NCBI GenBank assembly: GCA_964517675.1 | Contig: CAZFEL010000001.1 | Location: 9,339-73,338, forward strand | Origin: an uncultured archaeon | GTDB taxonomy: Archaea > Nanohalarchaeota > Nanosalinia > Nanosalinales > Nanoanaerosalinaceae | Direction of reading: 5' to 3' | DNA length: 64,000 bases | In this document: piece by piece, positions 8,356 through 29,645 of the stretch | Position numbering within the stretch: the first letter of the stretch is position 1 | How the letters are laid out: each line of letters opens with the position of its first letter | Translations under genes and position numbers: made by a program | The notes under the pieces: generated by a model | Seen by the model: only the letters and a program-made list of their open reading frames with translations | Database searches by the model: none | What the model was told of the DNA's origin: nothing

Positions 8356-8365
8356 GATCTGCAAG

Positions 8366-8388
8366 GGGTCCGTGGTCTAGTTGGTCAG
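8366..8388 (+). repeat. partial copy of the tRNA-Val 5' end (acceptor 5' strand plus D-arm, 23 nt)
   Basis: GGGTCCGTGGTCTAGTTGGTCAG is identical to nt 1-23 of the intact tRNA at 8484 and diverges afterwards. Confidence 0.8.
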
Positions 8389-8483
8389 CTCGGGTTCCGC
8401 CCCGAGTGTGCAGGGCCGGGATTCGCTGACGCGAACCCGGCGGAGATCGCTCGATGTCGCCGGGGCACCGGTGGATACTGCAG

Positions 8484-8557
8484 GGGTCCGTGGTCTAGTT
8501 GGTCAGGACGTCGCCTTGACGTGGCGAAGGTCGGCGGTTCAAATCCGCTCGGACCCA
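8484..8557 (+). tRNA. tRNA-Val (anticodon GAC)
   Basis: Hand-folded cloverleaf: acceptor GGGTCCG/CGGACCC, D-stem GTCT/GGAC, anticodon stem TCGCC/GGCGA with loop TTGACGT, T-arm GGCGG-TTCAAAT-CCGCT, discriminator A. Confidence 0.85.
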
Positions 8558-8615
8558 TCTCGTCTTTCTCGATGCTTAGAGCGTGATTTGAACCTTCTAG
8601 AAGCGCCAGCTTCAT

Positions 8616-8639
8616 GCGGTCCAAATCCGCTCGGACCCA
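8616..8639 (+). repeat. partial copy of the tRNA-Val 3' end (T-arm plus acceptor 3' strand, 24 nt, 1 mismatch)
   Basis: GCGGTCCAAATCCGCTCGGACCCA versus tRNA GCGGTTCAAATCCGCTCGGACCCA. Lies about 58 nt downstream of the tRNA. Confidence 0.8.
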
Positions 8640-12164: not shown

Positions 12165-13391
12165 ATGCTCATCTGGATCGCCTGGATCGTCATCGCTGTC
12201 ACCCTGTTCATGTCCCTGTTCTGGCTGAACGTGTTACAGCAGGAAAACACCGAGGTACGGGCGTTCCCGGAGCCCCAGCGGTTCCCGTCGGTCTCTGTCC
12301 TCATCCCGGCCTACAACGAGGAAGAGACACTCGCGGCCTCGATCGATTCCGTCCTCGAACAGGACTACGACGGCGATATCGAGGTCATCGTGATCAATGA
12401 CGGCTCGACGGACCGGACGAAAGAGATAGCACAGGAGTACGCCGATGATGGTCGGATCACACTCATCGATCAGGACAACCAGGGCAAGGGCGGGGCGCTG
12501 AACTCGGGGCTCGAGCACGCCGACAACGAGCTCGTCTCCGTGCAGGACGCTGACTCGGTCATCGAGCCGGATGCGTTCCGGAAGATGGTCGGTCACTTCT
12601 CCGATGACACTGTGGCAGGGGTCATCGCCGGTATCAAGCCCCTGGAGACGGACACGATCTGGAAGAAGTTCCAGCGGATCGAGTACCTGCTCGGTATCCT
12701 GTACAGGAAGCTGATGGCGATCATCAAGACACTGTATGTGACACCGGGAGCGCTGTCGCTGTACAGGCGGGACCTGATCGAGGAGTCGGGAGGGTTCGAC
12801 GATGATAACCTGACCGAGGACCTCGAGATCGCCCTGCGGATGAAAAAGCATGGCTACGATATCGAGATGTCTGCACCGGCGATCACGCGGACGGAGTTCC
12901 CTGCCGGCTTCCGCGACCTGATGCACCAGCGGATACGGTGGTACCGCGGGCTGATCAACAACACCCTGCGGTACCGTGAGATGATCTTCAACCCGGAGTA
13001 CGGCCTCTTCGGTATGTTCCAGATGCCGCTCCACATCGTGTTCCCGTTCGCCGCGATGATCGGGGCGTTCATGATGCTGTTCGGTATCGGGTCGATCGTG
13101 TTCGACCTGCTGATCTGGCTGAGCTCCGCCGGGCTGACGTTCACCAACCCCTTCGCCGGGTACACTCTGTACAAGGCCTTCCTGTCGTTCAACGTCAAGG
13201 TGTACTTCCCGCTGCTGATCGGTGCGTCCCTGGTGGCAGCGCTGGTCTACCTGTCGCATAAGTACACGGACGAGGAGCTGAAGCACCCGCTCTCGATTGT
13301 CGGATTTTTTATATGTTACTACACGATCTTGGGTGTGTTCTGGTGCCTCGCGGTTGGCACGGAACTGACACGACGTGAGAAACGATGGTAG
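12165..13391 (+). CDS. family 2 glycosyltransferase, processive type (IcaA/PgaC/cellulose-synthase-like) with flanking TM helices
   Basis: GT2 core (VLIPAYNEEE, INDGSTD, DAD) with a QRIRW (QxxRW) motif, an N-terminal TM helix and C-terminal TM helices. Confidence 0.85.
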   Translation: MLIWIAWIVIAVTLFMSLFWLNVLQQENTEVRAFPEPQRFPSVSVLIPAYNEEETLAASIDSVLEQDYDGDIEVIVINDGSTDRTKEIAQEYADDGRITLIDQDNQGKGGALNSGLEHADNELVSVQDADSVIEPDAFRKMVGHFSDDTVAGVIAGIKPLETDTIWKKFQRIEYLLGILYRKLMAIIKTLYVTPGALSLYRRDLIEESGGFDDDNLTEDLEIALRMKKHGYDIEMSAPAITRTEFPAGFRDLMHQRIRWYRGLINNTLRYREMIFNPEYGLFGMFQMPLHIVFPFAAMIGAFMMLFGIGSIVFDLLIWLSSAGLTFTNPFAGYTLYKAFLSFNVKVYFPLLIGASLVAALVYLSHKYTDEELKHPLSIVGFFICYYTILGVFWCLAVGTELTRREKRW

Positions 13392-14062
13392 TGACGAAAT
13401 ACGACTTCATCAAGGTCATCCTCGCGACCGCAGCAGTGTTCCTCGTGGGGCTCAGCATGGGATACATGTTCGATACCTCGCGTGTGAGCTATCTCTCCGG
13501 AGAACTGCAGGAATCGACCCTGGAGACGGAATCCTTTGTTGTCGGGCAGGCCTACCTGGACGCTGTCGAGGATCAACAGCGTTTCTGCTCGCTGATGGAC
13601 GACCAGATATACGAGACCGCGGACAAGACCCAGGAGCTCGGGACAGACCTGCAGAACTTTGGGAGCGCAGGGATGTTCCGCCAGGGAGACTATGACTACC
13701 TCGAGAGCCGTTACTACCTCTACGAGATACGGTTCATGCTGATGGTCGAGCGATACCGGGAGGAATGTGACAAGGATGTCGTCAGCATCATGTACTTCTT
13801 TTCGGACAACATCCAGTCCCAGCGCCAGGGCAACGTGTTGACGGAGTTCCGGGAGGCCAACCAGGGCCGGATCTTCGTGTTCAGCTTCGATGTCGAGTCC
13901 GACAACACCTCCGCGGTCAACATGATCAAGCAAGATCACAACGTGACCTCGACCCCGACCCTGGTCATCAACAAAGACAAAAAGATCGACGGGTACGCCT
14001 CCCGGACCGAGCTCCGTCAGGCAGTACAAGAGTATATTAATCTTGACGGTGGTGATAGCTGA
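13385..14062 (+). CDS. membrane-anchored extracytoplasmic protein (hypothetical), translationally coupled to the GT2
   Basis: ATG overlaps the GT2 stop (ATGGTAG). N-terminal TM helix. The C-terminus (TPTLVINKDKKIDGY) is thioredoxin-fold-like. Confidence 0.5.
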   Translation: MVVTKYDFIKVILATAAVFLVGLSMGYMFDTSRVSYLSGELQESTLETESFVVGQAYLDAVEDQQRFCSLMDDQIYETADKTQELGTDLQNFGSAGMFRQGDYDYLESRYYLYEIRFMLMVERYREECDKDVVSIMYFFSDNIQSQRQGNVLTEFREANQGRIFVFSFDVESDNTSAVNMIKQDHNVTSTPTLVINKDKKIDGYASRTELRQAVQEYINLDGGDS

Positions 14063-14063
14063 T

Positions 14064-14477
14064 ATGGGACTCCGCGATATGATCGGTCAGGAGGACGTCG
14101 CACTCCTCATCGTGCTGGCAGGGGTCATCGGTGTCGTCGTCCTGATGAGCCCGTCCGGCGGCAGCAGCTATGAACCCTCACAGTTCTGCAAGGATGTCGC
14201 GACCGAGACAGAGGCCAACTACACCAGTGCGGTCGACAGCATCGAGTGCCGCTGTGAGTCCGGCAAGAGCTATGAGAAACGGGTGAACACACCCGATAAG
14301 GTGGCGAACGTGACAGATATCAACGATGTCCTGGTCTGCGATGTCACCTACGGAGACCGCGAAAAGCAGCTCGTTTATCCACTCCTTCAGATCAACGAGA
14401 CGAAATACGATACCTACAACGGCACAGGGAACCTGAGCCGGGAGAATCTCACAAGCCGGCGGGATATCGTCGGGTAG
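14064..14477 (+). CDS. membrane-anchored secreted protein with multiple N-glycosylation sequons (hypothetical)
   Basis: Start at the ATG 2 nt after the upstream stop. One TM helix followed by a Cys-containing domain with NxT/NxS sequons. Confidence 0.45.
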   Translation: MGLRDMIGQEDVALLIVLAGVIGVVVLMSPSGGSSYEPSQFCKDVATETEANYTSAVDSIECRCESGKSYEKRVNTPDKVANVTDINDVLVCDVTYGDREKQLVYPLLQINETKYDTYNGTGNLSRENLTSRRDIVG

Positions 14478-14483
14478 TATCGA

Positions 14484-15464
14484 TCAGTCCTCGGCCTCGA
14501 TGTTGCCGACCTCCTTGGTGAGGATCAACCTGTTCTTCCTGCCTTCCTTGACCTTCTCGATCAGGTTCCGCTCCTTGAGGTCGGTCACCAGCCGGGAAAC
14601 CTTCGCCTTCGAATAGTCCAGGTTCTCGACGAGAGCCTTCTGCTCGCAGTCCCCGTCCTGGTCGATGATGTATCTCAGTGCTTCCTGTTCATCGTCCTTC
14701 AAGACAGGCATTATCGATGCGATGGTATCTCCTTCGTCCTGTCGGCGCTTCACGTAGATATACAGGGCAAGGGACATCAGTACGAGGATGAGGGCGGCGA
14801 CAAAGGAGAGGTGGTCGGGAAAGATGTCTTCGAAGACACGGAGTTCCTGGTACTTGATCTGGTACCGCTGGACATCACCCAGGCCCAGATCCTGTTCCTC
14901 CCACGTGACGGTGAACTGGCGGCCGCCCTCGTCACTGCCGCGCAGGGCATCCGGAGGACTGAGCGGTTCGACGTTTTCCTCCTCGAGCAGGCCATAGCCC
15001 TCCGGCAGGATGACACGGAGCCGGTATCTGTCCGTCGGGATGAGGATCCGCTGGACATGGGTGAACTCCAGGTAGCCCTCTTGCTGGGACAGATCGTTCG
15101 GTGTGGTGTACTCGACCGTCACGTTGTAGGTCGTGTTGAACGATGCCGGATCACACAGGATCTCGCTGTCGACATCGTTGAACTCACAGTCGAGTTCATT
15201 GCCCTGGGAATCATGTGCCTGGAGCTGCTGGGGCGAATGACCGGCCGGTATCAGCAAGGAGACCCGTTCGGAGGTCAGTTCGGAGTAATTGACATTGATC
15301 ATGACCTCCGTCTGTTCGCCCAGCCGGATGATCTCTTCCTCGGACTCGATCGTCGTCGCCGAGGCCGTCCCGAAGAAGGCGATGAGAAAGACAAAGACGA
15401 CACCGAGGCGGACCAACGAACAGGCCCGTCGGTCGAGGGACGAACGACAGCCATCCGGAGACAT
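14484..15464 (-). CDS. membrane-bound transcriptional regulator (extracellular domain, TM helix, cytoplasmic winged-helix HTH)
   Basis: Signal/TM at the N-terminus, a second TM (FVAALILVLMSLALYIYV), and a C-terminal wHTH (ALVENLDYSKAKVSRLVTDLKERNLIEK) of TrmB/MarR type. Confidence 0.6.
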   Translation of the reverse strand: MSPDGCRSSLDRRACSLVRLGVVFVFLIAFFGTASATTIESEEEIIRLGEQTEVMINVNYSELTSERVSLLIPAGHSPQQLQAHDSQGNELDCEFNDVDSEILCDPASFNTTYNVTVEYTTPNDLSQQEGYLEFTHVQRILIPTDRYRLRVILPEGYGLLEEENVEPLSPPDALRGSDEGGRQFTVTWEEQDLGLGDVQRYQIKYQELRVFEDIFPDHLSFVAALILVLMSLALYIYVKRRQDEGDTIASIMPVLKDDEQEALRYIIDQDGDCEQKALVENLDYSKAKVSRLVTDLKERNLIEKVKEGRKNRLILTKEVGNIEAED

Positions 15465-15508
15465 AGTAGCACAGTTGCCGTGTCTGGAATATAAATATTG
15501 TCAGGCGG

Positions 15509-15922
15509 TCACTGCTCGCTGTCCCGGGAGATCATCATGCCGCCGGCCCCTGATTGCAGGAATTTCTGCATCATCTCGGCGACGAGGTTGAGCGCATCCT
15601 GTGCCTCACCGAGATCGAGCCGGATCTGTTCGGGTCCACGGACCTCGATCATGGTCGGGCCGTAGTTCATGATGATCTCGATCAGGGTTGCGAAGTCCTC
15701 AACATCGCACTCGATCTCACAGACCTGAGAGTATCCCTTCTCCAGGGAAGGATGCGGTTTCTCGACCTCCTCGACCTCCTCGAAGTCTTCACTCGTCAGC
15801 TCGACCGCCTCCATGCTATCGAGCTTGTCGATGTGATCGCGGAGGGACTCGACGGCCGCATCCTCCGTCTTCGCGAGGACCTCGAAGATCATCCAGGTCT
15901 GGATGCCGTTGTCAGTGCTCAT
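15509..15922 (-). CDS. hypothetical acidic protein
   Basis: ORF 15509..15943 with ATG at 15922. Acidic, no recognisable motif. Confidence 0.45.
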   Translation of the reverse strand: MSTDNGIQTWMIFEVLAKTEDAAVESLRDHIDKLDSMEAVELTSEDFEEVEEVEKPHPSLEKGYSQVCEIECDVEDFATLIEIIMNYGPTMIEVRGPEQIRLDLGEAQDALNLVAEMMQKFLQSGAGGMMISRDSEQ

Positions 15923-15968
15923 CGGTGCATCACTTCGTACCAACGCTTACATGTCCGTTCCTGACCGA

Positions 15969-18518
15969 TCACTCCTTGACCACCACGGTACCGGTGTGGC
16001 CGGTCAGGAGGTGGTTGTGGTAGCCCCACTCGCCGGTCTTGTTGAACGTGAACTCGTACTCATCGACATCCGCACAGGAGTCAAAGCGTGTCGCCGCAGT
16101 GCTGTCATCGGCACAGTGCTCCGACCGTGATGTGCCGGCATAGTTCGTGTGTGTCGGATGCTCGTTAGAACCGACCCACATGTCCGGTCCCTTGCTCTCC
16201 CAGGTCACGGTCTCACCCTGCTTGATCGTTATTGTGCTGGGACTGAAACCGTCACTGGTGTAGGTGACGACGTTCTCGTCTTCGTCCACACCGCTCCTGT
16301 TCTCAGCTCCGGTCTTGGCGGCGAACTGCTGCTGGACCGTGCGGTTGAGACGCATCACCGGACTGTCGGCGCTGGCGGTGAACTCGCCATCGCCATCATC
16401 ATAGTGGAGCACCGCCCAGAATGTTCCGGTCATGTTCAGCGGGACGCTGGTATCGAACTCGCCCTCGAGGAGATCGCTGGTACTGACGATCTCGCCGGGC
16501 TGACCTCCATCATCCGTGTGCAGGACGATGTAGCCTGGCTCGTTGAGATAGCCCTCGACCTCGACACTGCCGTCATTCTCCAGACGCTGGTCCTGTGCCT
16601 CGATCATCGGAGCGAGGGAGCTGTCATCCTCGCGTTCTCGCTCATCGTCATCATCATCCCCGAGGACCGTCACCATCCCGGAGGCCGTGGCGACACGCTG
16701 TTCATCGACCTGTGCCGTCAGCTTGACCGTCCAGTTGCCCTGGGAGACGTACTTCCTGACCTCGTACTCCGAGACCCCGGTACACTGGATACCACCAACG
16801 TCACCACCACGGGTGACATCACTGTAGCCAAGCCGGACGGTGACCGTCCTGCTCTCGCGGTCGACTGTGGCACGGGCCTGTCCCTGGTAGTTGGGTGTGC
16901 TGAGACCCAGCTCGCCACGGACCCTGAGGTAGCCATCATGGCCGCTGAACTCGGCCGTCATGTTGCCGATGCCGGGATTGTCCTCATCAGCGCATTCCTG
17001 CTCGAACGTGACTCTGATGTCGCCATCGACCCGTCGCTCTGCCTCGCGCAATCGTTCCATCATATCACCGCGGCGGCCGCGTGCTTCCTCGACAAGTTCC
17101 TGGACCGCCTCGCGTCGCTTCTCGCGGAACTCGTTGATGATCTCGAGACGCTCTTCGACGGTGAGGTTCTGGGACATCTCCTCTGCGAACTCCCTGTTGA
17201 TCTCACCGAGGTCGTTGACCTGTTCCTGGAGATCCGCCGTCTCGCCACGGGCACGATCGCGTACCTGCTCCGGATTGGTCCGGACGTCATCCCATTCCTT
17301 CTCCCGGAACTCGCTGACGATCTCTCGAGCGTCCTCGTAGGCTTCCTGGTATTCGCCGGCAGCGAGGGCTGCCTCTGCCTCGTTGATGTCATTCCACGTG
17401 TCGTTGGACGCGTTCATGTCGCGGGCGAGATCTTTTGCCCGTGCGACCGTTCTGTTGGCCTTCCGTTCGAGCCGTTCCATGTTCTGCTGGATGTCCTCTT
17501 TCCATCGAGCCCGAGCCTTGTTCTGGGCGCGTGCTATCTCGGCTATCTCTTTCCCAGTGACGTTGGACGCCGAGCTGGCGACCTCATCGGCAGCCATACC
17601 GCGTACGGTCACGTCAGCCTCTGTTCCCTCGCGGACTGCCTCGGCGATGTCCCCGACCATGTCAGGAGAACCGACCACACGGACGTTCTCGATGCTCTCG
17701 TTGTTGATGAACGTCACGACGCTGTCGATGTCGTCATCGTTGCCAACGATGTAGGAGTTGGAACGGGGATCGGTCGTGCCGGCAAGCGAGTGCCGGAAGT
17801 CGGATGCACCGACAACGATGAACTCCTGGGATGTGTTGATACGGTCACGGAGCCGTTCCCTGACCTCCTGTCCGAGCTCCTCGTCGTCCGTGCCGACCGT
17901 GTCCCGGACCGAGATGCCGAGCTCGTTGAGCTGGCCTGTCGCTTCCTCCGACAGCTCACCACCGACGAAACCAACCTCGCTGACACCGAGGCCTTCAAGT
18001 GCGCTCATCACGCTTGCAGGGATCTTCTCCGAGGGTGCAAGGAAGACCGGCTCGCCGTTGGAACGGGCGATACTTTTCGCAAGACCGAGGACACGTTCAT
18101 CATCACCGCCCTCGTTCTCGACGAGCAGGGCCGAATCGGCTCCTTCCTGCCAGAAGTACTCGGCGATCTCGACTGCGGTGCCGTATCGTGTCACGCCCCA
18201 GAGCCGGGTCACATTGTTCTCCTGCTCGAGCCGTGCCTTGACATTATCGGAGATGACTTCGTCACCGCCGACGAGGATGATCTCCGAAGGATCCATGCGC
18301 TGGATCGCATCACCGACCTCCTGCGGTAGTTCGTCCTCGTCCGTCAGGAGGATGGGTGCGCCGATCTTCGATGCGGCTGATGAGGCGACCATGGCGTCCG
18401 GGTAGTTCTCCGTGGACGCCAGGATGACCGTCTCGACATCATCTGTTTCGTGCTGCTGTGCGAGCAGCGGGGTTGTAAGGAGTACAAGTGCAGCCGTCAG
18501 TGTAAGTAGCTTCCGCAT
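15969..18518 (-). CDS. large secreted protein with three N-terminal CWB2-type cell-wall-binding repeats, a coiled coil, and a C-terminal cupredoxin-like domain
   Basis: Signal peptide MRKLLTLTAALVLL. Three repeats with the PF04122-like pattern (ILASTENYPDAMVASSAASKIGAPILLT; TRLWGVTRYGTAVEIA...PVFLAPS; FIVVGASDFRHSLAG). Long K/E/R coiled coil. C-terminal IKQGETVTWESKG...HCADDS...YHNHLLTGH resembles a plastocyanin/azurin fold. Confidence 0.8.
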   Translation of the reverse strand: MRKLLTLTAALVLLTTPLLAQQHETDDVETVILASTENYPDAMVASSAASKIGAPILLTDEDELPQEVGDAIQRMDPSEIILVGGDEVISDNVKARLEQENNVTRLWGVTRYGTAVEIAEYFWQEGADSALLVENEGGDDERVLGLAKSIARSNGEPVFLAPSEKIPASVMSALEGLGVSEVGFVGGELSEEATGQLNELGISVRDTVGTDDEELGQEVRERLRDRINTSQEFIVVGASDFRHSLAGTTDPRSNSYIVGNDDDIDSVVTFINNESIENVRVVGSPDMVGDIAEAVREGTEADVTVRGMAADEVASSASNVTGKEIAEIARAQNKARARWKEDIQQNMERLERKANRTVARAKDLARDMNASNDTWNDINEAEAALAAGEYQEAYEDAREIVSEFREKEWDDVRTNPEQVRDRARGETADLQEQVNDLGEINREFAEEMSQNLTVEERLEIINEFREKRREAVQELVEEARGRRGDMMERLREAERRVDGDIRVTFEQECADEDNPGIGNMTAEFSGHDGYLRVRGELGLSTPNYQGQARATVDRESRTVTVRLGYSDVTRGGDVGGIQCTGVSEYEVRKYVSQGNWTVKLTAQVDEQRVATASGMVTVLGDDDDDEREREDDSSLAPMIEAQDQRLENDGSVEVEGYLNEPGYIVLHTDDGGQPGEIVSTSDLLEGEFDTSVPLNMTGTFWAVLHYDDGDGEFTASADSPVMRLNRTVQQQFAAKTGAENRSGVDEDENVVTYTSDGFSPSTITIKQGETVTWESKGPDMWVGSNEHPTHTNYAGTSRSEHCADDSTAATRFDSCADVDEYEFTFNKTGEWGYHNHLLTGHTGTVVVKE

Positions 18519-18610
18519 GGGATTCCACCGTACCCCTTACTCTGTCGGCGCGGTTTTTATAGGTCAGGTCGAGGGGGAGGTATTTCAATGACGGATTCGC
18601 CTTCGAGTCC

Positions 18611-19102
18611 ATGCAGCTGAACCGCGACGAGTTGCGGCGTCGGATCGAGGACGACGGGCTCCTCAAGGGATACCGGGATCTCGACAGACAACTGACACCG
18701 AACGGGTTCGATATGAGTGTCGCGGAGGTCCACAGGTTCGAGGGACCGGGCCAGCTCGATTTCACGAACGAACAGCGGCAGCTCCCGGAGACGACCGAGC
18801 TCGAACCGCAGGACGACTGGTGGGAGCTCGAGAACACAGTATACAAGCTTGTGATGCAGGAAAAGGTCGATATCCCGCTCGATCTTGTCGGTATCGGGTT
18901 CCCCCGATCATCGCTGATGCGGATGGGAGCCCACATCCAGAACGGGTTCTGGGAAGCTGGCTACGAGGGCAGGACGGAGTGCCTGCTCGCTGTCGATAAC
19001 CCTGAAGGCATGCGACTGAAAGACGGTGCCCGCGTCCTCCAGATCAGCTTCCACGAGCTCGAAGATGTCGATGACGGGTACGATGGACGGTACAGCGTCT
19101 AG
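18611..19102 (+). CDS. dut: dUTP diphosphatase-like protein (dCTP deaminase/dUTPase family, haloarchaeal Dut type)
   Basis: 163 aa. LVGIGFPRSSLMRMGAHIQNGFWEAGYEG parallels the dCTP-deaminase-family active-site region (compare dcd at 53072). Confidence 0.65.
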   Translation: MQLNRDELRRRIEDDGLLKGYRDLDRQLTPNGFDMSVAEVHRFEGPGQLDFTNEQRQLPETTELEPQDDWWELENTVYKLVMQEKVDIPLDLVGIGFPRSSLMRMGAHIQNGFWEAGYEGRTECLLAVDNPEGMRLKDGARVLQISFHELEDVDDGYDGRYSV

Positions 19103-19755
19103 ATCTGCTTGAGATCGACATCGATCCCGTCCTCGATCTCCATGATGCCGTAATATCCCTCCTGGACCGGTCCGGGGTTGATGACGGTCGTCCCGCCGAG
19201 GGTGTCGATGCTGCGTCCCTCGTGGACGTGTCCTGTGAGGACGAGATCGAGATCTGTCTCCTCGATGAGTTCGCGGACCGCCGTGCTGCCGACGTGGTCC
19301 TCATCCGTGACATCGGCAGCGACGCCGAACGGCGGCTGGTGGATGACCGCCACCCTCGTATCGGCCTGCATGCGGCCGTACAGCTGGGAGAGGACATCTT
19401 TGATTGCATCTTCCTCCGGCTCAAATGGCGTCCCGAACGGCGTGATACCGCCACCGAACCCGATGGCGTCGAAGGCATCGAAGGAGGCGACGTTCTTGTG
19501 CAGGTTCATCCTGTAGTCGATCAGCGTCCCGACACAGTCCTCCTCGGGGTCCATGTTGCCGGGGACGGCCTTCGCCAGCTTGCGCTGCTCGTTGAAGACC
19601 TCGAGGACCTCTTTGAGCCGGCCCTTGTAGTCGCTGTAGGAGCTGGCATCGCTGATATCGCCGGCACAGAGGGCGACATCGTAGTCTTCGGTTTCGAGGA
19701 CGGTTTCGAGCGAATCAACATCGCCGTGGATGTCTGTGGTGAGGAGAACGCGCAT
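19099..19755 (-). CDS. metallophosphoesterase (calcineurin-like phosphoesterase)
   Basis: DIHGD ... GD ... GNMD ... GHVHE motifs. ATG at 19755. Confidence 0.8.
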   Translation of the reverse strand: MRVLLTTDIHGDVDSLETVLETEDYDVALCAGDISDASSYSDYKGRLKEVLEVFNEQRKLAKAVPGNMDPEEDCVGTLIDYRMNLHKNVASFDAFDAIGFGGGITPFGTPFEPEEDAIKDVLSQLYGRMQADTRVAVIHQPPFGVAADVTDEDHVGSTAVRELIEETDLDLVLTGHVHEGRSIDTLGGTTVINPGPVQEGYYGIMEIEDGIDVDLKQI

Positions 19756-19777
19756 AGGTGAGAATGGGGAAGACACA

Positions 19778-19784
19778 TTTAAAG
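19778..19784 (+). promoter_or_regulatory. TATA-box-like element upstream of the structured ncRNA
   Basis: TTTAAAG. Predicted TSS near 19810. Confidence 0.3.
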
Positions 19785-19809
19785 CTTTGACCGCCCAGTT
19801 GTACCACGA

Positions 19810-20110
19810 GACCAGGCCATACAGACCGGTCTCTCTGGGGTCTGCGTGGACTCCGGCCCCGCCGGAGTGGAGCGCAGGTGACCTTCAGGGCGGACCGCTC
19901 TGGCCCAAGCCCCGATGGCTAAGCCTGGTATAGCGGCCGACTCGTAATGGGCGCGGATCGTCCGCGTCCACGGTCCTGGATGCTCTCCCCATGGCCTGGC
20001 GGGAGCCCAGGGTACGCCCAGTCTTTCCCTGGCTAGGAAAGACGCCTGTGATGAGGAGGATCATTAAGTGCTTGAGCTAACGCGATGATGATGTGAACAC
20101 CCTCCGAGCA
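19810..20110 (+). ncRNA. structured ncRNA candidate, most consistent with SRP (7S) RNA
   Basis: About 300-nt non-coding GC-rich stretch with a long-range helix (CGTGGAC ... GTCCACG) and several perfect local hairpins (GCGCGGA-TCG-TCCGCG; GTCTTTCC-ctggcta-GGAAAGAC). CCGGAGTGGAGCGCAGG resembles the SRP domain IV CCGGAAGG-AGCA motif. RNase P is disfavoured because the motif order is wrong. Confidence 0.3.
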
Positions 20111-20183
20111 GGGTTACCGGGCTGTAAAATGCAGGAGGCACCGCTAACGCGTACTGCCCGCTGCAGACGAGATATCGGCAGGT

Positions 20184-20209
20184 CCCGGGTTCAAATCCCG
20201 GTCGGGGCT
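20184..20209 (+). repeat. tRNA 3'-end-like element, copy 1 (T-arm CCGGG-TTCAAAT-CCCGG plus acceptor 3' strand TCGGGGC)
   Basis: One of three direct copies (20184, 20275, 20357). No matching 5' acceptor strand exists upstream, so it is not a full tRNA. Confidence 0.7.
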
Positions 20210-20274
20210 TCTCTTTGCCTTCTTTCGGTATGTTCGGGGATTTGATAGCCTCGAGAAAATCTCCGATTTTCGAC

Positions 20275-20299
20275 GGGTTCAAATCCCGGTCGGGGCTTC
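20275..20299 (+). repeat. tRNA 3'-end-like element, copy 2
   Basis: GGGTTCAAATCCCGGTCGGGGCTTC is identical to the core of copy 1. Confidence 0.7.
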
Positions 20300-20356
20300 A
20301 CTCCGTTCAGCTTCCGCTGCGGGAGTTCTCGACCCGTTCTTCTCTCCCGAGAAGCC

Positions 20357-20421
20357 GGGAGTTCAAATCCCGGTCGGGGCTTCTCTTTGACATCTCTCGA
20401 TATTTTCGGGATTTGATAGCT
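20357..20421 (+). repeat. tRNA 3'-end-like element, copy 3, plus shared about 40-nt downstream unit
   Basis: GGGAGTTCAAATCCCGGTCGGGGCTTC followed by TCTTTGaCaTCTcTCGaTATtTTCGGGATTTGATAGC, which also follows copy 1. Confidence 0.7.
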
Positions 20422-20525
20422 CCGGTTCTCGGGGTCCCGGGCTCGTCGTGGAGACGGATACACCGGGTCACGGCAGGACGGTGCCGGGACACATCGTTCT
20501 GTACCATGCCCGTGACAATGCAGGA

Positions 20526-20945
20526 TCAGCGACCGTCGATGATGAGCTCCATGACATCTGTCCGCCTGTCGAGCAGGTACAGCAGGACGAAGGTGGCCAC
20601 GAGCAGCAAGCCACCGACAGCCTGGCCGACCGTCCCAAGCGACTGGAGCTGGTAGACGGCCTGGAGGACGATCGCCAGTGTGAGCACAAAGGTGAACACA
20701 GCGAGGAAGAGGTTCATCTCGAACTGGGCGCGCTGCATCTCCCGCTGGCGGGCAACGTCGAAGCCTTTCTCCGTCAGGACAGGATCGTCCATTCCATCTA
20801 TCAGGTCGTGGCGTTTCAGGAATGATAGCCCGTCATTAATCTCGCCCTCAGAGAGATTTTCCGATGCCTCCAGTGACCTGCGCCAGCCGGTGTCCTCGCT
20901 CTCATAGACCGCCTGCAGGACCTTCGCCCATATCGCCTCAGCCAT
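20526..20945 (-). CDS. hypothetical protein with an N-terminal soluble domain and two C-terminal TM helices
   Basis: 139-aa ORF with hydrophobic segments FLAVFTFVLTLAIVLQAVY and LLLVATFVLLYLL. Confidence 0.45.
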   Translation of the reverse strand: MAEAIWAKVLQAVYESEDTGWRRSLEASENLSEGEINDGLSFLKRHDLIDGMDDPVLTEKGFDVARQREMQRAQFEMNLFLAVFTFVLTLAIVLQAVYQLQSLGTVGQAVGGLLLVATFVLLYLLDRRTDVMELIIDGR

Positions 20946-21009
20946 AGAACAGTATGGGGCGGGGTGATTTAAACAGCCTCCTCCCCTGACCTACCCCCCC
21001 TGGCCCCGG

Positions 21010-22050
21010 TCAGCGGGACGCCTGATAGGTCCCGTAGAGGGCTGTCCCGAGGGCACCGAGCCCGAGCAGGATGACAGTGAGCTGGACGATATCGGCGACG
21101 ACCGGGACCCGTCCGAGAGCTGTCACCACCAGCAGGCCCACGACCAGAGCGAGGAACCTGCTATCGTGGTCGAACTGCTCCAGCAGCCAGTCACCGAGGG
21201 CGTACTGGACATAGACCATCCCGGCCCAGAGGGCCACGATGAACCCCACAAGGACGATAAGCCCCATCGGGAGTCCGATGATCGTCACCATCAGGATGAG
21301 TGATGCGACAGGGACACCGATCAGTGCCAGGGCGCCGACACCCGCCAAACGCAGCGGGGCATCCTGGAGACGGTCGTTGAGACCTTCAGAGAACCGTGGG
21401 AAGACTGCAAGCAGGACGACACCGAACAGGAAACTGGTGATGAGGCTGTACGATCCCCCGATCCAGGCCGGGAGCGACGGCGTCCCGAGGTCGACCTCCA
21501 AGTCGCCCTCAAGGTCCTCGTCCCTTGTGACATCGCCACCGACAGATGCGGTATCAGCGAGATCGAAGCTCGCTGCTCTGTAGCGTATATCCCCGCCGAT
21601 AACAGCATTCGGACCGACATCGAGGGTATCAGCAGAGAGAACGGTATCGCCGTTGACAGAACCATCAACAGAGACATAGGCTCCACCAGCCTTGAGGCTA
21701 CCGTCGATGCGGGCGGTCTCGGTCACCTCGACGGTCCCGGCAGCGACCTGGACGCTGCCATCGACAGTCCCGTCGATCCGGACCGTGCCTGCCGCCGCAT
21801 CAATGCTACCGCCGACGGATCCTTCCTCCATGACGTGGATACTGCCAGCGGCCCCGGAGACGTTGCCGGTCACGGTGCCCCGGACCACGATCGCCCCTGC
21901 ATAGCCGTCGATGCTGTCGATCGTCTCGTTCACATCGACGACGATGGCGGCCGATGAACCGTCCGTGGTGCCTGCCGCCGCCATCCCGGCAGGGACAATG
22001 ACCACAAGAAAAATGGCAAGGGCCATGACCTGGGAGGTATATCGATGCAT
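21010..22050 (-). CDS. bactofilin-like polymer-forming cytoskeletal protein with C-terminal TM anchor domain
   Basis: Repetitive G-x-V/I-x-G-x-V beta-helix repeats (GTVTGNVSGAAGSIHV...GSVGGSIDAAAGTVRIDGTVDGSV...), typical of the bactofilin/DUF583 family. Hydrophobic C-terminal third. Start chosen at ATG 22050. Confidence 0.65.
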   Translation of the reverse strand: MHRYTSQVMALAIFLVVIVPAGMAAAGTTDGSSAAIVVDVNETIDSIDGYAGAIVVRGTVTGNVSGAAGSIHVMEEGSVGGSIDAAAGTVRIDGTVDGSVQVAAGTVEVTETARIDGSLKAGGAYVSVDGSVNGDTVLSADTLDVGPNAVIGGDIRYRAASFDLADTASVGGDVTRDEDLEGDLEVDLGTPSLPAWIGGSYSLITSFLFGVVLLAVFPRFSEGLNDRLQDAPLRLAGVGALALIGVPVASLILMVTIIGLPMGLIVLVGFIVALWAGMVYVQYALGDWLLEQFDHDSRFLALVVGLLVVTALGRVPVVADIVQLTVILLGLGALGTALYGTYQASR

Positions 22051-22184
22051 GAGTACTGGCTGGCGGTCTGTCTTGAAAAATGTATCGACTGGGACAGTCC
22101 CGGCCACACACGACGGGAACGAACAGGGACGTGGTGCCTGTCGCCGTCAGCAGTTTTATACCGCTCCCACTCCAACCGGAGAAC

Positions 22185-22757
22185 GTGGCACTGGAACTCG
22201 ATGATTTCCTCCACGAAGGATGGCTGAACAATGCCGTTGGCTGGACCACCGTCATGCTGATGACAGGCGTCCTCATAGAGAGCCTGCTGGACATGGACGT
22301 CGTCTGGGCGGGATTTACAGGGCTTGTGATGCTCGTCCTGCTCCTGCCAACGGTGATCGGGGACGATCGGCGGATACGGATGCCATGGGGGTTCCTTATC
22401 CTTGCCTCGCTCCCTATAACAGCCCGGGCACTCGATATAGGGATGGTCAGAGGGCCTATATTCTTCTATCTCTCCTTCGCGGCCCTGGCCCTGATCATCG
22501 CGGTCGAGATCCACATGTACACCGGCACGAAGATGACACACTGGTTCGCGGTGGTTTTCGTCTCCCTGACGACGATCGCAATCGAGGGCGCCTGGGCAAT
22601 CAGCCGATGGTACGCGGACTCGCTGCTCGGAACCTCCTTCCTGCCGCCCCATGATGACCTGATGGTCGACTTTGTCGCCGTCCTCGCGGTCGGGATCGGT
22701 GCCGGGATCTTCTTCGACATCTACTTCCGCAGGTTCGGGCCGGAGGTGGAACCATGA
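22185..22757 (+). CDS. polytopic membrane protein (hypothetical)
   Basis: ORF 22080..22757 with very hydrophobic helices. The start is uncertain (GTG at 22185 or downstream ATGs). The ORF N-terminus overlaps the convergent gene. Confidence 0.45.
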   Translation: MALELDDFLHEGWLNNAVGWTTVMLMTGVLIESLLDMDVVWAGFTGLVMLVLLLPTVIGDDRRIRMPWGFLILASLPITARALDIGMVRGPIFFYLSFAALALIIAVEIHMYTGTKMTHWFAVVFVSLTTIAIEGAWAISRWYADSLLGTSFLPPHDDLMVDFVAVLAVGIGAGIFFDIYFRRFGPEVEP

Positions 22758-23416
22758 GGATACGTGACCTCCTCGGTATCTCCGAACGCGCCCAGCACAG
22801 GATAACGCGGGCCATGCAGGCGATCCTGCTGACAATGACCCTGGTCGGGTTCTACCAGCTGAACGTGCGGATGATCTTCAGCTCCCTCATTCCGCTTGCG
22901 GTCTCGTTCGTCCCGGCAGCGATGCGGAAGGACCCGAACGTGACAATGGACACCGGGATCGTGATGTGGGTCACAGCAGCCGCGTTCCTCCACGCTGTCG
23001 GGACCTACGGGGTCTACGATGCGATAGCCGGTTTCGACCACCTCACACACGCGTTCTCGGCCACAGTAGTCGCTGGGACGGGCTATGGCATCGTCCGGGC
23101 GATCGACAACCATGCCGATGGCGTTCATCTCCAGGACGAGGTCGTCTTTGCTTTCATCCTGATCTTCACGATGGCCTTCGGTGTCATCTGGGAGGTTGGC
23201 GAGTTCTTTGCCGGCATCCTCGGAGATATCACCGGACACGGACCCGTCCTGATCCAGTACGGCATGGCGGACACGATGAAGGACATGACATTCAACATGG
23301 CCGGGGCCGTCCTCATCGCGACGTGGGGTCATATCTACCTGACAGGGGTCGTCGAGACCATCGCCGGGTTCCTCGGGTACAACCGCCTCACCGGCCAGGA
23401 CGTTACAGATGAGTAA
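22754..23416 (+). CDS. polytopic membrane protein (hypothetical)
   Basis: ATGA start/stop overlap with the upstream ORF. Multiple TM helices. Confidence 0.55.
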   Translation: MRIRDLLGISERAQHRITRAMQAILLTMTLVGFYQLNVRMIFSSLIPLAVSFVPAAMRKDPNVTMDTGIVMWVTAAAFLHAVGTYGVYDAIAGFDHLTHAFSATVVAGTGYGIVRAIDNHADGVHLQDEVVFAFILIFTMAFGVIWEVGEFFAGILGDITGHGPVLIQYGMADTMKDMTFNMAGAVLIATWGHIYLTGVVETIAGFLGYNRLTGQDVTDE

Positions 23417-23442
23417 GCTTTAGTACGCGGGACCCGCATGGA

Positions 23443-24189
23443 TTGACGGTGATCTCCGTGGATCTCGAAGGAACAGTGGCGATCGTAACCGGCGGATCGA
23501 CAGGTATCGGTCGTGCCATAACAGAAAGATACATAGAAGAAGGCGCTGACGTTGTCATCGCCGACATAAACGAGGAAAAAGGCAAGGAGACGGCCGAAGA
23601 CCTTGGCTGTGACTTCATGACCTGCGATGTATCAGAGTACGACCAGGTCGAGGACATGGTCGAACGCACAGTGGAGGAACACGGCCACCTGGACGTCATC
23701 GTCAACAATGCCGGGATAGGCAGCACCGCACCCCTCGGTGAGATGAGCACCGAGCAGTGGGAGGCGACGATCGATGTCAACCTGACCGGCGTCATGAACG
23801 GCTCGAAGGCAGCCCTCCCACAGCTCCAGGAGACGGAAGGCTGTATCATCAATATCGCCTCCATCTACGGGCTCGTCGGTGCACCAGGTGCGACATCGTA
23901 CAACGCCGCCAAGGGCGGTGTCGTCAACTTCACCCGCAGCGTCGCGGTCGACTACGCCGAGGAAAACGTCCGGGTCAACTCCATCTGTCCCGGGTTCGTT
24001 CGGACACCGATGACAGAGGACATGCTCGATGATGAAGACTTCTACAGCTTCGTCGAGAACAACACACCGATGGACCGTGTCGCAGAGCCCGATGAGATCG
24101 CTGGGCTGGCCGCCTTCCTGGCCTCGGACGATGCATCCTACATCACCGGTGCGAACATCCCGGTCGATGGTGGCTGGACGGCACACTGA
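23443..24189 (+). CDS. short-chain dehydrogenase/reductase (SDR) family oxidoreductase
   Basis: TGGSTGIGRA, NNAG, YNAAK catalytic motif. Paralogous to 2130..2786. Confidence 0.85.
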   Translation: MTVISVDLEGTVAIVTGGSTGIGRAITERYIEEGADVVIADINEEKGKETAEDLGCDFMTCDVSEYDQVEDMVERTVEEHGHLDVIVNNAGIGSTAPLGEMSTEQWEATIDVNLTGVMNGSKAALPQLQETEGCIINIASIYGLVGAPGATSYNAAKGGVVNFTRSVAVDYAEENVRVNSICPGFVRTPMTEDMLDDEDFYSFVENNTPMDRVAEPDEIAGLAAFLASDDASYITGANIPVDGGWTAH

Positions 24190-24273
24190 TCGCCGACCGC
24201 TGTTCAAGACCGTCCTCGGTCAGCGACGGTGCGCGGCCCCACGAGGGCCGCCATACCCTTTTTTTTCTCCGCC

Positions 24274-24777
24274 TCATGCCTCATTGCCCAGGACCTGTTC
24301 CATCGCGTGGGCGACAGAGCGCCGGGTGAACTCCTCCCGGGTCAGTCGTCCATCGGTCATCACACCGACCGTCCCCTCCTGCTCCGGGACATCATCGCGT
24401 TCCATCTCGTCGTTGATGACCGTTCCCAGCTCCTCCTCCGGCAGCCGTGAGGTGACAGCATCAGGCAGCCGGATCCGTCCGGAACCTCCCTCCCCGAGGA
24501 CCTCGCCATCCTCCATGATGACGGTCCAGACGGTGAGGAAGGCCGCGTGCTCGATGTACCCCTCGATCCCGATGCCCCGGTCCGCATCGAGCTTCCGGGC
24601 GGCACGGAAGGCCCTGTTCCGGGCTCCGGTCCGGGCCTGCTCCCATGCCATCGGCATCGATCCGATCCCGGGATCGACGGAGACGCGTTCGACATCCAGT
24701 GTATCATGATACGTCTCCAGTGCTGACCTGGTTGCTTTTTCCTTCACAGGGTTGCCGGAACCGAGCGCATACAACAT
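24274..24777 (-). CDS. inosine/xanthosine triphosphatase (DUF84/YjjX-like non-canonical NTPase)
   Basis: QARTGARNRA and VMTDGRLTREEFTRRSV align with E. coli YjjX motifs ETRAGARNRV and VFTAGKLTRASVYHQAV. Confidence 0.7.
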   Translation of the reverse strand: MLYALGSGNPVKEKATRSALETYHDTLDVERVSVDPGIGSMPMAWEQARTGARNRAFRAARKLDADRGIGIEGYIEHAAFLTVWTVIMEDGEVLGEGGSGRIRLPDAVTSRLPEEELGTVINDEMERDDVPEQEGTVGVMTDGRLTREEFTRRSVAHAMEQVLGNEA

Positions 24778-24779
24778 CC

Positions 24780-25286
24780 TCAGTCACCGTAATGTTCGTG
24801 GACCTGGCTGGCGTCCCACGATCGCAGTTGATCCTGGTCGTAGCCGAGCTCCTCGAAGGCCTCGTACATCCGGTCCTCGTCAGGAGCCTCGATCTCGAGC
24901 AGGGCAGGGATGCCGGGATATGCATCGATGACATACTCAATATCGTCCCGCTCCCATTTCTTCCTGTGCTTGGAGGACGAGCGGACCTCCTCGAGGCCGA
25001 GCTCGCGTAGGAACCTGTCCGCCATCTCTGTGCTGGAGACATCGAACTCGATCTCCTCCATCGTCTTGGCACCGTCACGGGAGATATCAATCTTGTACGT
25101 GATGAAGGCGTGATCTCCCGCCTCCCGGAGCCGCAGGACCCCCTGGTCGTCGATGCTGCCGTCGGGGTAATCGTAGAAACGCGAGGTCACCTCACCGTCG
25201 AAGACCTTCTCCGCGCCAAGCTCATCAAGCCGTTCGGTCACCTCCTGTTCATCGATCTCCAGTACCTTCGCCTCGACCTCGTCCAT
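24780..25286 (-). CDS. CYTH domain protein (class IV adenylate cyclase / triphosphatase-like)
   Basis: EVEAKVLEID ... FITYKIDIS ... EEIEFDV pattern. Start at the internal ATG 25286, because the ORF part upstream of it is implausible. Confidence 0.65.
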   Translation of the reverse strand: MDEVEAKVLEIDEQEVTERLDELGAEKVFDGEVTSRFYDYPDGSIDDQGVLRLREAGDHAFITYKIDISRDGAKTMEEIEFDVSSTEMADRFLRELGLEEVRSSSKHRKKWERDDIEYVIDAYPGIPALLEIEAPDEDRMYEAFEELGYDQDQLRSWDASQVHEHYGD

Positions 25287-25343
25287 GGACAAGGTTGCCC
25301 CGGGAAGGTATTTAACTACTGTGACGGCATCCACCAACCGCCG

Positions 25344-26744
25344 ATGGAGAGTCTGATCGAACGAAGCCGGTCGTGGGTGACAGAGCACAGGATGACCGCA
25401 GCGGTCTTCGCTGCCGTGACAGTCCTGCTCATCGCCCAGCGGTTCATGGGCTGGAACTGGGACTTCATGGTCTACATGATGAACGGGGAGTATCTGCTCG
25501 GGTCGGGGAGCTACATCGAGTGGTACCGCGGGCCTGTCGCGGGGCTCATCCTGGGGCTGTTCCGTCTCATTGTCCCGCGATCGGTCGCATCGGTGCTGTT
25601 CGTCGCCGGGGTCTCTGCGCTGTTCCTCCATGCTGCCAGGACCGTCGCCGACCGGTATGACCTCGATGTCGATCGGTTCTACATCCTGCTTGTCTCACCC
25701 TTTGTCATCATGCAGGGGACCTTCCACGGGACTGAGATGCTGGGCCTGGCCTTTGCGATGCTGTTCATCGGGGAGCTCGATCGACCTCGTGCCGGTCTGT
25801 GGCTTTCCCTGGCGTTCCTGACGCGTTATACCTTCGTCTTCGCTGTTCCACTTGTGCTGTTCCAGTGGGACCTGTGGAAGACGATGACGACCTACGCGAT
25901 AGCGGCGGTACCTGTCCTCTCGTGGTTCGGGTTCAACTGGTACGTCCTGGGCGATCCGCTGACCAGCGTGGCGAATTCCATTGCGCTGAACGTCCGGCTC
26001 CGGCGTATCGTCCAGGCTCCTGATCTGGTGCATTTCATCTTCCTCGGGGGCCTCTCGCTTGCGTTCATCGCGTACTACATCTGGGAGGACGGTCTTCCCT
26101 CAATCGAGGCGATCCTGGAGAGGAGATGGTTTGTCCTGCTAGTCTTTGCCTCCCTCATCTCGCTCAGTTACCTCCGGACCCCGGTCAAACCGCTACGGTA
26201 CCTGTATCCTTTTGCCTTCCCGGTCGCTGTCGCGGGGGCAAGGGCCTGGGATCGGCTCGATCTGCCAGGGATACTGCTGGCGGCCGTCGCTGTCGTCCAC
26301 CTGCTCGGTGGCGCGTACCTCGTCGCCGGGACGCCTGCTGCCCATCCAGATCCGTACATGGACGCCGCAGAGTATGTAGAGGGCTGTCAGGCCTCGTCAA
26401 ACATCTGGCCGCATATTTCCTATGCCGGGAAACCGGCAGAACCTGTCCCGGATATCAACGGCGTGCGCCAGCAGATCGAGGAGGGCTATCGTGTCGTGCT
26501 GTTCCTGAACAGTCCGAGCCCGCCGTTCATGAAAAACGAGAGCCTCCTCGCATCACTGCCGACAGTCAAAGAGACAGGGAGCTACATCGTGGCAGGACAC
26601 GAAGACAGGTGCCTGGAACCAGACCCGGTGAACGAGACATACTTCACGTTCCGAGAACGTCGGCTGGCTGCCGAGGGAATCGAACAAGACTACAGGCCGT
26701 GTCCTTTCCTCCTCGGAGATATCTGCAGGTACCTGGGACTGTGA
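25344..26744 (+). CDS. polytopic integral membrane protein with a C-terminal soluble domain (GT-C-like glycosyltransferase candidate)
   Basis: 467 aa from ATG 25344. About 10 TM helices followed by a hydrophilic about 130-aa domain. Confidence 0.55.
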   Translation: MESLIERSRSWVTEHRMTAAVFAAVTVLLIAQRFMGWNWDFMVYMMNGEYLLGSGSYIEWYRGPVAGLILGLFRLIVPRSVASVLFVAGVSALFLHAARTVADRYDLDVDRFYILLVSPFVIMQGTFHGTEMLGLAFAMLFIGELDRPRAGLWLSLAFLTRYTFVFAVPLVLFQWDLWKTMTTYAIAAVPVLSWFGFNWYVLGDPLTSVANSIALNVRLRRIVQAPDLVHFIFLGGLSLAFIAYYIWEDGLPSIEAILERRWFVLLVFASLISLSYLRTPVKPLRYLYPFAFPVAVAGARAWDRLDLPGILLAAVAVVHLLGGAYLVAGTPAAHPDPYMDAAEYVEGCQASSNIWPHISYAGKPAEPVPDINGVRQQIEEGYRVVLFLNSPSPPFMKNESLLASLPTVKETGSYIVAGHEDRCLEPDPVNETYFTFRERRLAAEGIEQDYRPCPFLLGDICRYLGL

Positions 26745-29332: not shown

Positions 29333-29562
29333 AGGAGGTAGCCACGGAGTGGTCGTCACCCTCCAGAAACAATCGGCGGGCACAGGAAGCCGAGGTAGCC
29401 AAGTGGAACATCTTGGCAACCCCCTCTGTCAAGAGGAATATAGTACGCGGAGGTAGCCAAGTGGAACATCTTGGCAACCCCCTCTGTCAAGAGGAATATA
29501 GTACGCGGAGGTAGCCAAGTGGAACATCTTGGCAACCCCCTCTGTCAAGAGGAATATAGTAC
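29333..29562 (+). repeat. tandem array of four 56-58-nt units, each beginning with a copy of the first 18 nt of tRNA-Leu(CAG)
   Basis: Units at 29389, 29447 and 29505 (58 nt) are 57-58/58 identical and start with GC(G/C)GAGGTAGCCAAGTGG. The unit at 29333 is degenerate. The array abuts the intact tRNA at 29563. Confidence 0.85.
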
Positions 29563-29645
29563 GCGGAGGTAGCCAAGTGGCCAAAGGCGCAGCGTTCAGG
29601 GCGCTGTCGGTTAGCCGTTCGCAGGTTCGAATCCTGCCCTCCGCA
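29563..29645 (+). tRNA. tRNA-Leu (anticodon CAG)
   Basis: Hand-folded: acceptor GCGGAGG/CCTCCGC, anticodon stem CAGCG/CGCTG with loop TTCAGGG, long variable arm, T-arm GCAGG-TTCGAAT-CCTGC, discriminator A. Confidence 0.9.

Follow-up and report, generated by a model that had tools for sequence, protein, structure and literature searches.

What does a short sequence resembling the 3' end of a tRNA do when it stands three times in a row on an archaeal chromosome, and which tRNA did it come from? We asked this of a stretch of 64,000 nucleotides (nt) from an uncultured nanohaloarchaeon (contig CAZFEL010000001.1, assembly GCA_964517675.1, positions 9,339 to 73,338 of the forward strand; the whole stretch is referred to here as the window, with position 1 as its first letter), in which an earlier note had described an orphan array of three such repeats spaced about 85–90 nt apart, the first and third with a common tail. 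The repeats themselves were readily recovered, with the 21-mer GTTCAAATCCCGGTCGGGGCT found exactly three times on the + strand (starts at 20189, 20277 and 20361; spacing 88 and 84 nt) against a chance expectation of zero in 100 dinucleotide shuffles, and with no fourth match in the 64 kb when up to three mismatches were allowed. A 23-mer (GGGTTC...) is exact in copies 1 and 2 and has one mismatch in copy 3 (GAGTTC...). The common tail was recovered as well: over some 62 nt, the tail GGGATTTGATAGC included, copies 1 and 3 are 90% identical, and this type of tail forms two inverted repeats, one with the T-loop portion of copy 2 and the other with that of copy 3. The orphan status of the array was not upheld: judged from its sequence, copy 1 is essentially certainly the genuine 3' end of a functional-looking tRNA-Thr(CGU) gene, and our favoured reading of copies 2 and 3, held with middling confidence, is that they are partial duplicates lying in the trailer of this gene and produced by local duplication and unequal recombination.

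The acceptor 5' strand that had been reported as missing upstream of the repeats, GCCCCGA, is located at 19909–19915, and its partner TCGGGGC at 20202–20208, 287 nt downstream. When 19909–19946 is joined to 20174–20209, the sequence folds as a perfect tRNA-Thr(CGU) cloverleaf in which the anticodon loop is standard, and ARAGORN, with introns allowed, called tRNA-Thr(cgt) with an intron (40,227) on the genomic sequence and tRNA-Thr(cgt) again on the spliced sequence. Default ARAGORN and Rfam at gathering thresholds both missed the tRNA-Thr(CGU) gene, and we attribute the blindness of the default tRNA finders to the 227-nt intron. The second exon provides the 3' strand of the anticodon stem, the variable loop, the T-arm, the acceptor 3' strand and the discriminator U, so that copy 1 is part of an RNA gene and its parent tRNA is found at the locus itself. 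The U73 discriminator, once taken to point to a Cys-like tRNA, belongs to tRNA-Thr, and what had been regarded as a separate, adjacent structured non-coding RNA (ncRNA) is the leader and intron of the same gene. The view that none of the copies is a functional tRNA was correct for copies 2 and 3 and mistaken for copy 1.

The intron is of the bulge-helix-bulge type: its central helix is made by C32–G35 (CUCG) and a CGAG immediately preceding the 3' splice site, with the 3-nt bulges UA/A and AU/A on either side; the inner helix h' is weak, which places the motif in the relaxed hBH form. A comparison of 17 nanohaloarchaeal tRNA-Thr genes found that the intron partner covaries with the anticodon, being ..CGAGnn/ in the CGU genes and ..CAAGnn/ in the UGU genes. 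We extended the comparison to related loci, given here by our labels (L068, L069, L070 and L076, plus L040 from the Candidatus Asbonarchaeum danakilense metagenome-assembled genome, with which the window is syntenic); the neighbouring proteins in the window have nanohaloarchaeal homologues only. The exons are 100% identical in L069, L076 and L040, and the intron is 95% identical to that of L069 and contains two hairpins with compensatory changes (nine doubly changed pairs among four sequences). A scan of 185,579 genomes with the 21-mer core, of the kind proposed in the earlier note, returned 45 loci, every one of which is a tRNA-Thr 3' end; it revealed the orthologous intron-containing tRNA-Thr genes, and with one copy per locus in the fetched stretch (<=8 kb) no intact element bounded by the core was found. 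Amongst the Nanohaloarchaea, tRNA-Thr genes with the same core have introns of 10–254 nt at position 37/38, and the intron-containing form is widespread.

Other archaeal 37/38 introns, such as that of the haloarchaeal tRNA-Trp which holds a box C/D RNA, share with ours the 4-bp helix, the 3-nt bulges and the C/D-box-like motifs. They differ in that the host here is Thr(CGU), the intron is unusually long (227–254 nt in the clade) and h' is weak, and in that a C/D guide role for our intron is putative, with the C box not conserved in L040. The C/D-box-like motifs are GUGAUGA (20048–20054), AUGAUGA (20085–20091) and CCGA (20104–20107), the last two being 12 nt apart; Rfam C/D sRNA matches at 20044–20109 are weak and sub-threshold, and inspection by eye found no methylation target for these motifs in the tRNA. 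The intron stretch GCGATGATGA(C/T)GTGAACACCCTCCGA is kept through to Asbonarchaeum and only partly in Nanoanaerosalina (L015). We note that nearly all nanohaloarchaeal tRNA-Thr(CGU) and tRNA-Thr(UGU) genes carry a 37/38 intron (loci L001–L045), that several of these introns hold UGAUGA-type boxes, and that ARAGORN labels some of the long-intron genes wrongly as Ser or Ala. The CGU intron measures 227 nt in the window, 230 nt in L076 and 254 nt in L040, all very long by the standards of archaeal tRNA introns.

Copies 2 and 3 follow copy 1 head to tail on the tRNA strand in units of 84–88 nt with spacers of 63–64 nt, and the array separates the tRNA from the 3' end of a convergent gene encoding a 139-aa protein (Table 1). 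The copies match the tRNA over 21–26 nt, beginning in the T-stem (for copy 3 at its final base, G53) and continuing 2 nt beyond the discriminator. The sequences of spacers 1 and 2 show no relationship, and unit 2 has only the core in common with units 1 and 3. Spacer 1 includes a segment matching the T-loop, which we refer to as an anti-T segment (GGGATTTGA, 20237–20245), and the hairpin GAAAATC-TCC-GATTTTC (20255–20271); in the minimum free energy (MFE) fold these form one long hairpin together with copy 2. Spacer 2 has the hairpins ACTCCG..CGGGAGT and CTTCTC-TCCC-GAGAAG, and by eye its opening ~23 nt look similar to those of the tRNA-Leu(UAG) trailer. Copy 3 with the upstream CCGGGA can be drawn by eye as a 5-bp stem closing a 9-nt loop, and the anti-T segment in the tail after copy 3 pairs back onto copy 3 over 11 nt, a pairing matched by 14 of 5000 shuffles. 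To the eye, this last tail looks homologous to the trailer of L070.

Table 1. Coordinates of the tRNA-Thr(CGU) gene, its leader and trailer array, and of the repeats found at the other tRNA genes of the window.
Feature	Coordinates	Strand	Basis
TATA-box-like TTTAAAG	19778–19784	+	Invariant in window, L068 and L040; also in L069
Conserved structured 5' leader, with hairpin GGACTCCGG-N5-CCGGAGTGGA at 19848–19871	19785–19908	+	Alignment
tRNA-Thr(CGU) exon 1: acceptor 5' strand, D-arm, anticodon stem and loop to A37	19909–19946	+	ARAGORN, spliced cloverleaf
Bulge-helix-bulge intron, 227 nt, position 37/38, structured	19947–20173	+	Central helix, bulges, covariation
tRNA-Thr(CGU) exon 2, contains copy 1 (core 20186–20209)	20174–20209	+	Exact repeat match, ARAGORN
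Spacer 1, A-type trailer: pyrimidine-rich start, anti-T, hairpin	20210–20273	+	Inverted repeat, MFE fold
Copy 2: partial tRNA-Thr copy, T-stem position 50 to discriminator	20274–20297	+	Exact match
Spacer 2, B-type: two hairpins and degenerate T-arm-like CGGGAGTTCTCGACCCG	20298–20360	+	63/63 identical in L069
Copy 3: partial tRNA-Thr copy, T-loop to discriminator	20361–20381	+	Exact match
A-type tail past copy 3, 90% like post-copy-1 tail	20382–20433	+	Direct and inverted repeats
tRNA-Val(GAC) 8484–8557: 5' copy 8364–8388, anti-T 8583–8594, hairpin 8600–8613, 3' copy 8616–8639	8364–8639	+	
tRNA-Leu(CAG) 29563–29645: perfect 58-nt x3.3 tandem upstream	29392–29645	+	Tandem Repeats Finder, 100% matches, score 378
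Intron-containing tRNA-Leu(UAG) 48244–48385: hairpin GAGAAGATCTCTGATCTTCGA inside intron (48312–48332)	48244–48466	+	
tRNA-Leu(UAG) trailer: anti-T 48415–48421, hairpin 48428–48441, degenerate 3' copy 48445–48466		+	
tRNA-Met 61915–61991: anti-T GTTTGGACC 61873–61881 (G.U pairs), hairpin 61851–61867, 3' copy 61821–61846	61821–61991	-	

In sequence terms copies 2 and 3 are not tRNAs, because ARAGORN called no tRNA at either and Rfam returned no tRNA-clan (CL00001) match in 20212–20480 even at E<=10. The possibility that they represent tRNA-like genes was likewise set aside in view of the lack of any covariance-model match and the weak fold z-scores (the trailer folding energies give z-scores of -0.6 to -2.8 against shuffles). 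It should be noted that 20310–20381 can be drawn by eye as a 72-nt cloverleaf-like fold with three G.U pairs in the acceptor stem, but this is unsupported. No internal TATA-like box was seen by eye in the array, and no bulge-helix-bulge motif was found by hand within the trailer hairpins. Open reading frames in the array (e.g. 20215–20655) overlap the repeats, and a protein-coding reading was rejected, these frames being judged spurious without a homology search.

The tRNA-Thr gene is not alone in this, as all five tRNA genes in the window carry copies of their own 5' and/or 3' ends, and tRNA ends account for five of the eight short-range direct-repeat families in the 64 kb. The tRNA-Val gene is bracketed by a 25-nt 5' copy (the first 23 nt of the tRNA and 2 leader nt) at a distance of 118 nt on the upstream side and, 82 nt downstream, by a copy of its final 24 nt, with a trailer fold z-score of -2.8. 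An exact 26-nt 3' copy is found 91 nt downstream of tRNA-Met, and a degenerate one 81 nt downstream of tRNA-Leu(UAG). The tRNA-Leu(CAG) gene is preceded by a tandem array (29392–29580) whose units each consist of 40 nt of leader followed by the initial 18 nt of the tRNA. A common layout unites the four 3' modules: first a tail, then an anti-T segment matched to the T-loop of the tRNA in question, a hairpin and finally the copy. The permutation values for the anti-T segments range individually from 0.003 to 0.29 (the tRNA-Met pairing was matched by 37 of 5000 shuffles), and when combined by hand in a Fisher test over the four independent loci give a value of ~0.002, which we take as moderate support. 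In addition, the hairpin GAGAAGATCTCYGATCTTCGA (GA(A/G)A(A/G)ATC-TCY-GAT(C/T)TTC) is common to the 59-nt intron of tRNA-Leu(UAG) (48312–48332), the tRNA-Thr trailer (20253–20273) and the tRNA-Met trailer (61851–61868, - strand), always on the tRNA strand and with no other occurrence in the window. No such copies were found at ~68 tRNA genes of 45 loci from other genomes, ~25 of them nanohaloarchaeal, and we infer that tRNA-end copies are a property of this lineage. Extending the window by 8.9 kb added no further tRNA.

Relatives of the window differ by whole units. In L069, where the neighbouring genes are 80–88% identical to those of the window, spacer 1 is absent, and spacer 2 with a single further core comes immediately after the true tRNA end; the window thus corresponds to L069 with one unit added, this unit extending from core to core. 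The core2–spacer2–core3 segment is identical between the two at 108/108 positions (63/63 for spacer 2 alone). L070 has a spacer-1-type (A-type) module with a different hairpin and the diverged pseudo-end GGTCCAAATCCTACTCAGGACT, and L076 and L040 have a single core. On this comparison units come and go from core to core, as the relatives hold two cores, a divergent module or just one core.

We therefore favour a history in which copies 2 and 3 would be non-coding partial duplicates of tRNA-Thr(CGU), running from the T-stem or T-loop to the discriminator and lying in the 3' trailer. The array would have originated by local duplication of the tRNA end and its flank, after which slippage, or unequal recombination at the identical cores, may have lengthened, shortened and homogenised it. 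The units are predicted to be transcribed, probably as a read-through trailer, to fold into hairpins in which the anti-T segment pairs with the copied T-loop, and to be removed when the 3' end of the tRNA is processed. This reading is preferred because the units are arranged head to tail, units 1 and 3 share trailer sequence and the relatives differ by whole units, because the perfect tRNA-Leu(CAG) tandem would represent the process caught recently, and because there is a precedent in Escherichia coli. One suggestion of the earlier note, that the repeats are modules following an RNA gene, comes closer to our reading, in which they would be trailer modules co-linear with the tRNA; the RNA gene they follow is tRNA-Thr itself.

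The E. coli precedent is provided by tyrT/tyrV (rtT/RttR RNA, tpr). Our check of the K-12 genome recovered six occurrences of the final 19 nt of tRNA-Tyr, three of which fall within 178-bp tandem repeats that lie distal to tyrV and overlap rttR/tpr. As in the window, the repeats follow the tRNA gene head to tail and co-linearly on the tRNA strand, and each includes the end of the tRNA, from the T-loop onwards. The E. coli units, however, are 178 bp long and ~95% alike throughout, whereas those of the window are 84–88 nt and share the core (plus the tail in units 1 and 3); the E. coli region yields a known small RNA and a small ORF (open reading frame), whereas any such product of the array described here would be putative; and in the archaeal window every tRNA gene is affected, 5' ends included.

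Several observations fit poorly with a history of duplication and recombination only. Spacer 2 with its two cores is identical at 108/108 positions between the window and L069, compared to 80–88% for the adjacent genes and 95% for the intron, which points to constraint or recent transfer and not to a neutral by-product. Unrelated spacers between identical cores are a signature of site-specific recombination and not of simple tandem duplication, and every copy takes in part of a tRNA and has a boundary in the T-arm or D-loop, which random slippage does not predict. The anti-T segments matching their own T-loops at four loci, with individual permutation values of 0.007–0.29, and the hairpin GAAGATC-TCY-GATCTTC shared by three tRNA loci only also hint at a selected or mobile module.

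One rival explanation is integration. Under this explanation, the copies at all the tRNA genes would be attR-type attachment-site scars left by integrases recombining at the T-loop, whose elements later disappeared or shrank to tens of bases. Partial tRNA genes arising from element integration are well documented in archaea (PMC9897764), as is an archaeal 5' tRNA fragment beside a recombinase element (PMC3293823). The core fits, spanning the T-stem or T-loop to the tRNA 3' end (+0–4 nt) like T-loop-class att sites, and it has unrelated flanks; and as with attL/attR partial tRNA genes (PMC9897764), a direct repeat of the 3' part of a tRNA lies beside an intact gene in a neighbourhood where gene content just downstream varies between close relatives. 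The documented cases, however, have an element of 9–23 kb with an integrase between the copies, whereas at four loci here there are just 59–68 nt between cores, a uniformity of size that random decay would not produce. The checked neighbours of the five tRNA loci include no integrase or mobile-element gene and encode housekeeping or membrane proteins instead. Searches of 2.9 M viral contigs found neither core nor hairpin, chance coding matches aside (the core 23-mer had no matches, and the two matches to the hairpin had no tRNA or core nearby and were read as chance), and the 18 matches to the hairpin/T-loop junction in metagenome contigs were all in tRNA-free contexts unrelated to the trailer module; as nanohaloarchaeal elements are poorly sampled, a missing attP or intact element is weak negative evidence. 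All 45 genomes with the core hold a single copy in the fetched stretch (<=8 kb), with none having two matches per contig. Integration also has difficulty with the 5'-end copies, which include a perfect tandem array that separate integrations cannot make, and it would demand five site specificities in a genome of ~1 Mb. On balance we consider attR-type scars unlikely. Three identical repeats of 21–26 nt set 61–65 nt apart might bring to mind a miniature CRISPR-like array, or off-target spacer integration at a tRNA T-arm, and Rfam CRISPR-DR models do match weakly, but at 16 bits against gathering thresholds of 35–45 bits. The repeat is the tRNA's own end, and the other tRNAs copy their own ends too, including 5' ends; the sequences past copies 1 and 3 are 90% alike, and spacer 2 is conserved between relatives. 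This interpretation is effectively refuted by the far sub-threshold matches and the tRNA identity of the repeat, and we give it very little credence. Least credible of all is an assembly artefact in the form of a collapsed or chimeric repeat: short-read contigs do break at or near the core in three assemblies, but two independent Logan short-read assemblies agree with the window at 100% over 12611–20209 and 20260–25945, that is, across copy 1 and across copies 2–3, a 610-kb JGI (Joint Genome Institute) contig runs across the array region, and L069, from a different sample, has a coherent two-copy version. It is the independent assemblies and this relative that lead us to regard the array as real.

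A further rival explanation is that the modules are functional leader and trailer RNAs under selection, acting as processing or termination structures, as folding decoys for the nascent tRNA, or as small-RNA precursors like rtT. Spacer 2 has been kept at 63/63 where its flanks have diverged by 5–20%, and the anti-T segments fit their own T-loops such that the departures from complementarity at tRNA-Met and tRNA-Leu(UAG) are G.U pairs on the sense strand. The one hairpin recurs on the tRNA strand in the Thr and Met trailers and the Leu(UAG) intron and nowhere else in the 64 kb, and by eye related trailer starts are found behind different tRNAs (Thr unit 2 resembles Leu(UAG), and Thr units 1 and 3 resemble Val). 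The units are also about one tRNA in length, and the stretch 20310–20381 allows the cloverleaf-like drawing mentioned above. Set against this, the folding energies are barely more favourable than those of shuffled sequences, no covariance model matches, and there are too few independent sequences for a covariation test. The modules are dispensable, being absent from L076, L040 and ~25 other nanohaloarchaeal tRNA loci, their number varies between near-identical relatives, and terminal pseudo-cores decay (in L070, and in the window past 20433). We see selected modules as a possible but doubtful explanation. Equally tentative is the suggestion that we are dealing with an undescribed family of modular structured tRNA-flank elements in a nanohaloarchaeal sub-lineage, made up of leader hairpins, trailer hairpins bearing an anti-T arm, and mimics of the 5' or 3' end of the neighbouring tRNA, moving or recombining between tRNA genes and under selection (as suggested by the 100% conservation of spacer 2), or else with a new and tiny tRNA-targeting mobile element. 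If true, such elements could serve in pre-tRNA folding or processing or be small-RNA precursors.

The ordinary part of this locus is an unrecognised intron-containing tRNA gene. Because its 227-nt intron hides the gene from default tRNA finders and from Rfam, genome annotations of this group are likely to be without the essential tRNA-Thr(CGU) and to list unexplained 'ncRNA' and 'orphan' tRNA fragments instead. Less ordinary is the lineage-specific copying of tRNA ends, within structured leaders and trailers, at all five tRNA genes. If local duplication and recombination alone are responsible, this would be a natural case of tRNA-flank instability in a reduced DPANN genome and a warning for island prediction based on att sites. 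If the modules are selected, they would amount to a new level of organisation in the pre-tRNAs of this organism.

Upstream of the gene, the TTTAAAG box is presumed to be the promoter of the tRNA-Thr transcription unit, and the same motif, TTTAAA(A/G)C, is found ahead of the Val, Leu(UAG) and Met genes. Scans for bacterial-type promoters and terminators were empty, but these models do not apply to an archaeon. The leader (~125 nt) is 94% identical to that of L069, compared to 86–88% in the flanking genes, and has long invariant blocks which reach Asbonarchaeum (L040), with only the loop varying in the GGACTCCGG-N5-CCGGAGTGGA hairpin. Nothing in Rfam matches 19785–19908; this leader may act as a processing element or be a small RNA in its own right, and in L076 another leader stands in its place. 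A second hairpin, GG(N)TTCGC-N3-GCGAA(N)CC, is found in the window only upstream of tRNA-Val (8419–8438) and tRNA-Leu(UAG) (48198–48214), and in L076 is located upstream of tRNA-Thr at about 1765–1790 (- strand). Leaders seem to be modular and interchangeable between tRNA genes, given that this hairpin precedes different tRNAs in the window and in L076.

A few further observations concern the other tRNA genes and the contigs. The bracketing of tRNA-Val is what one would expect if an older tRNA-Val gene enclosed a segment with a complete tRNA-Val gene in it, and a TATA-like box at 8222 would give this gene a leader of ~230 nt. Further upstream of tRNA-Leu(CAG) there is an older and slightly diverged tandem unit at 29389 and a decayed copy, GGAGGTAGCCACGGAGTGG, at ~29335. 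Logan contigs end at or beside tRNA-end copies in three samples (at 20209, 20260 and 8427 of the window, and at the ends of L068 and L070). As contigs end at the core even though the repeat is shorter than k=31, these breaks may reflect strain heterogeneity in unit content.

The genes just downstream of tRNA-Thr differ between the relatives (20382–22273 compared with L069, L070 and L040). In the window these encode the 139-aa protein, which has helix-turn-helix and transmembrane (HTH/TM) regions, and a bactofilin-domain protein. L069 additionally has TauE and a GST-like gene and L070 additionally has TauE and a 131-aa gene, with TauE and the 131-aa gene being absent from the window, and L040 has two unrelated genes; all of the loci rejoin at the DUF8268 membrane protein (22080–22757).

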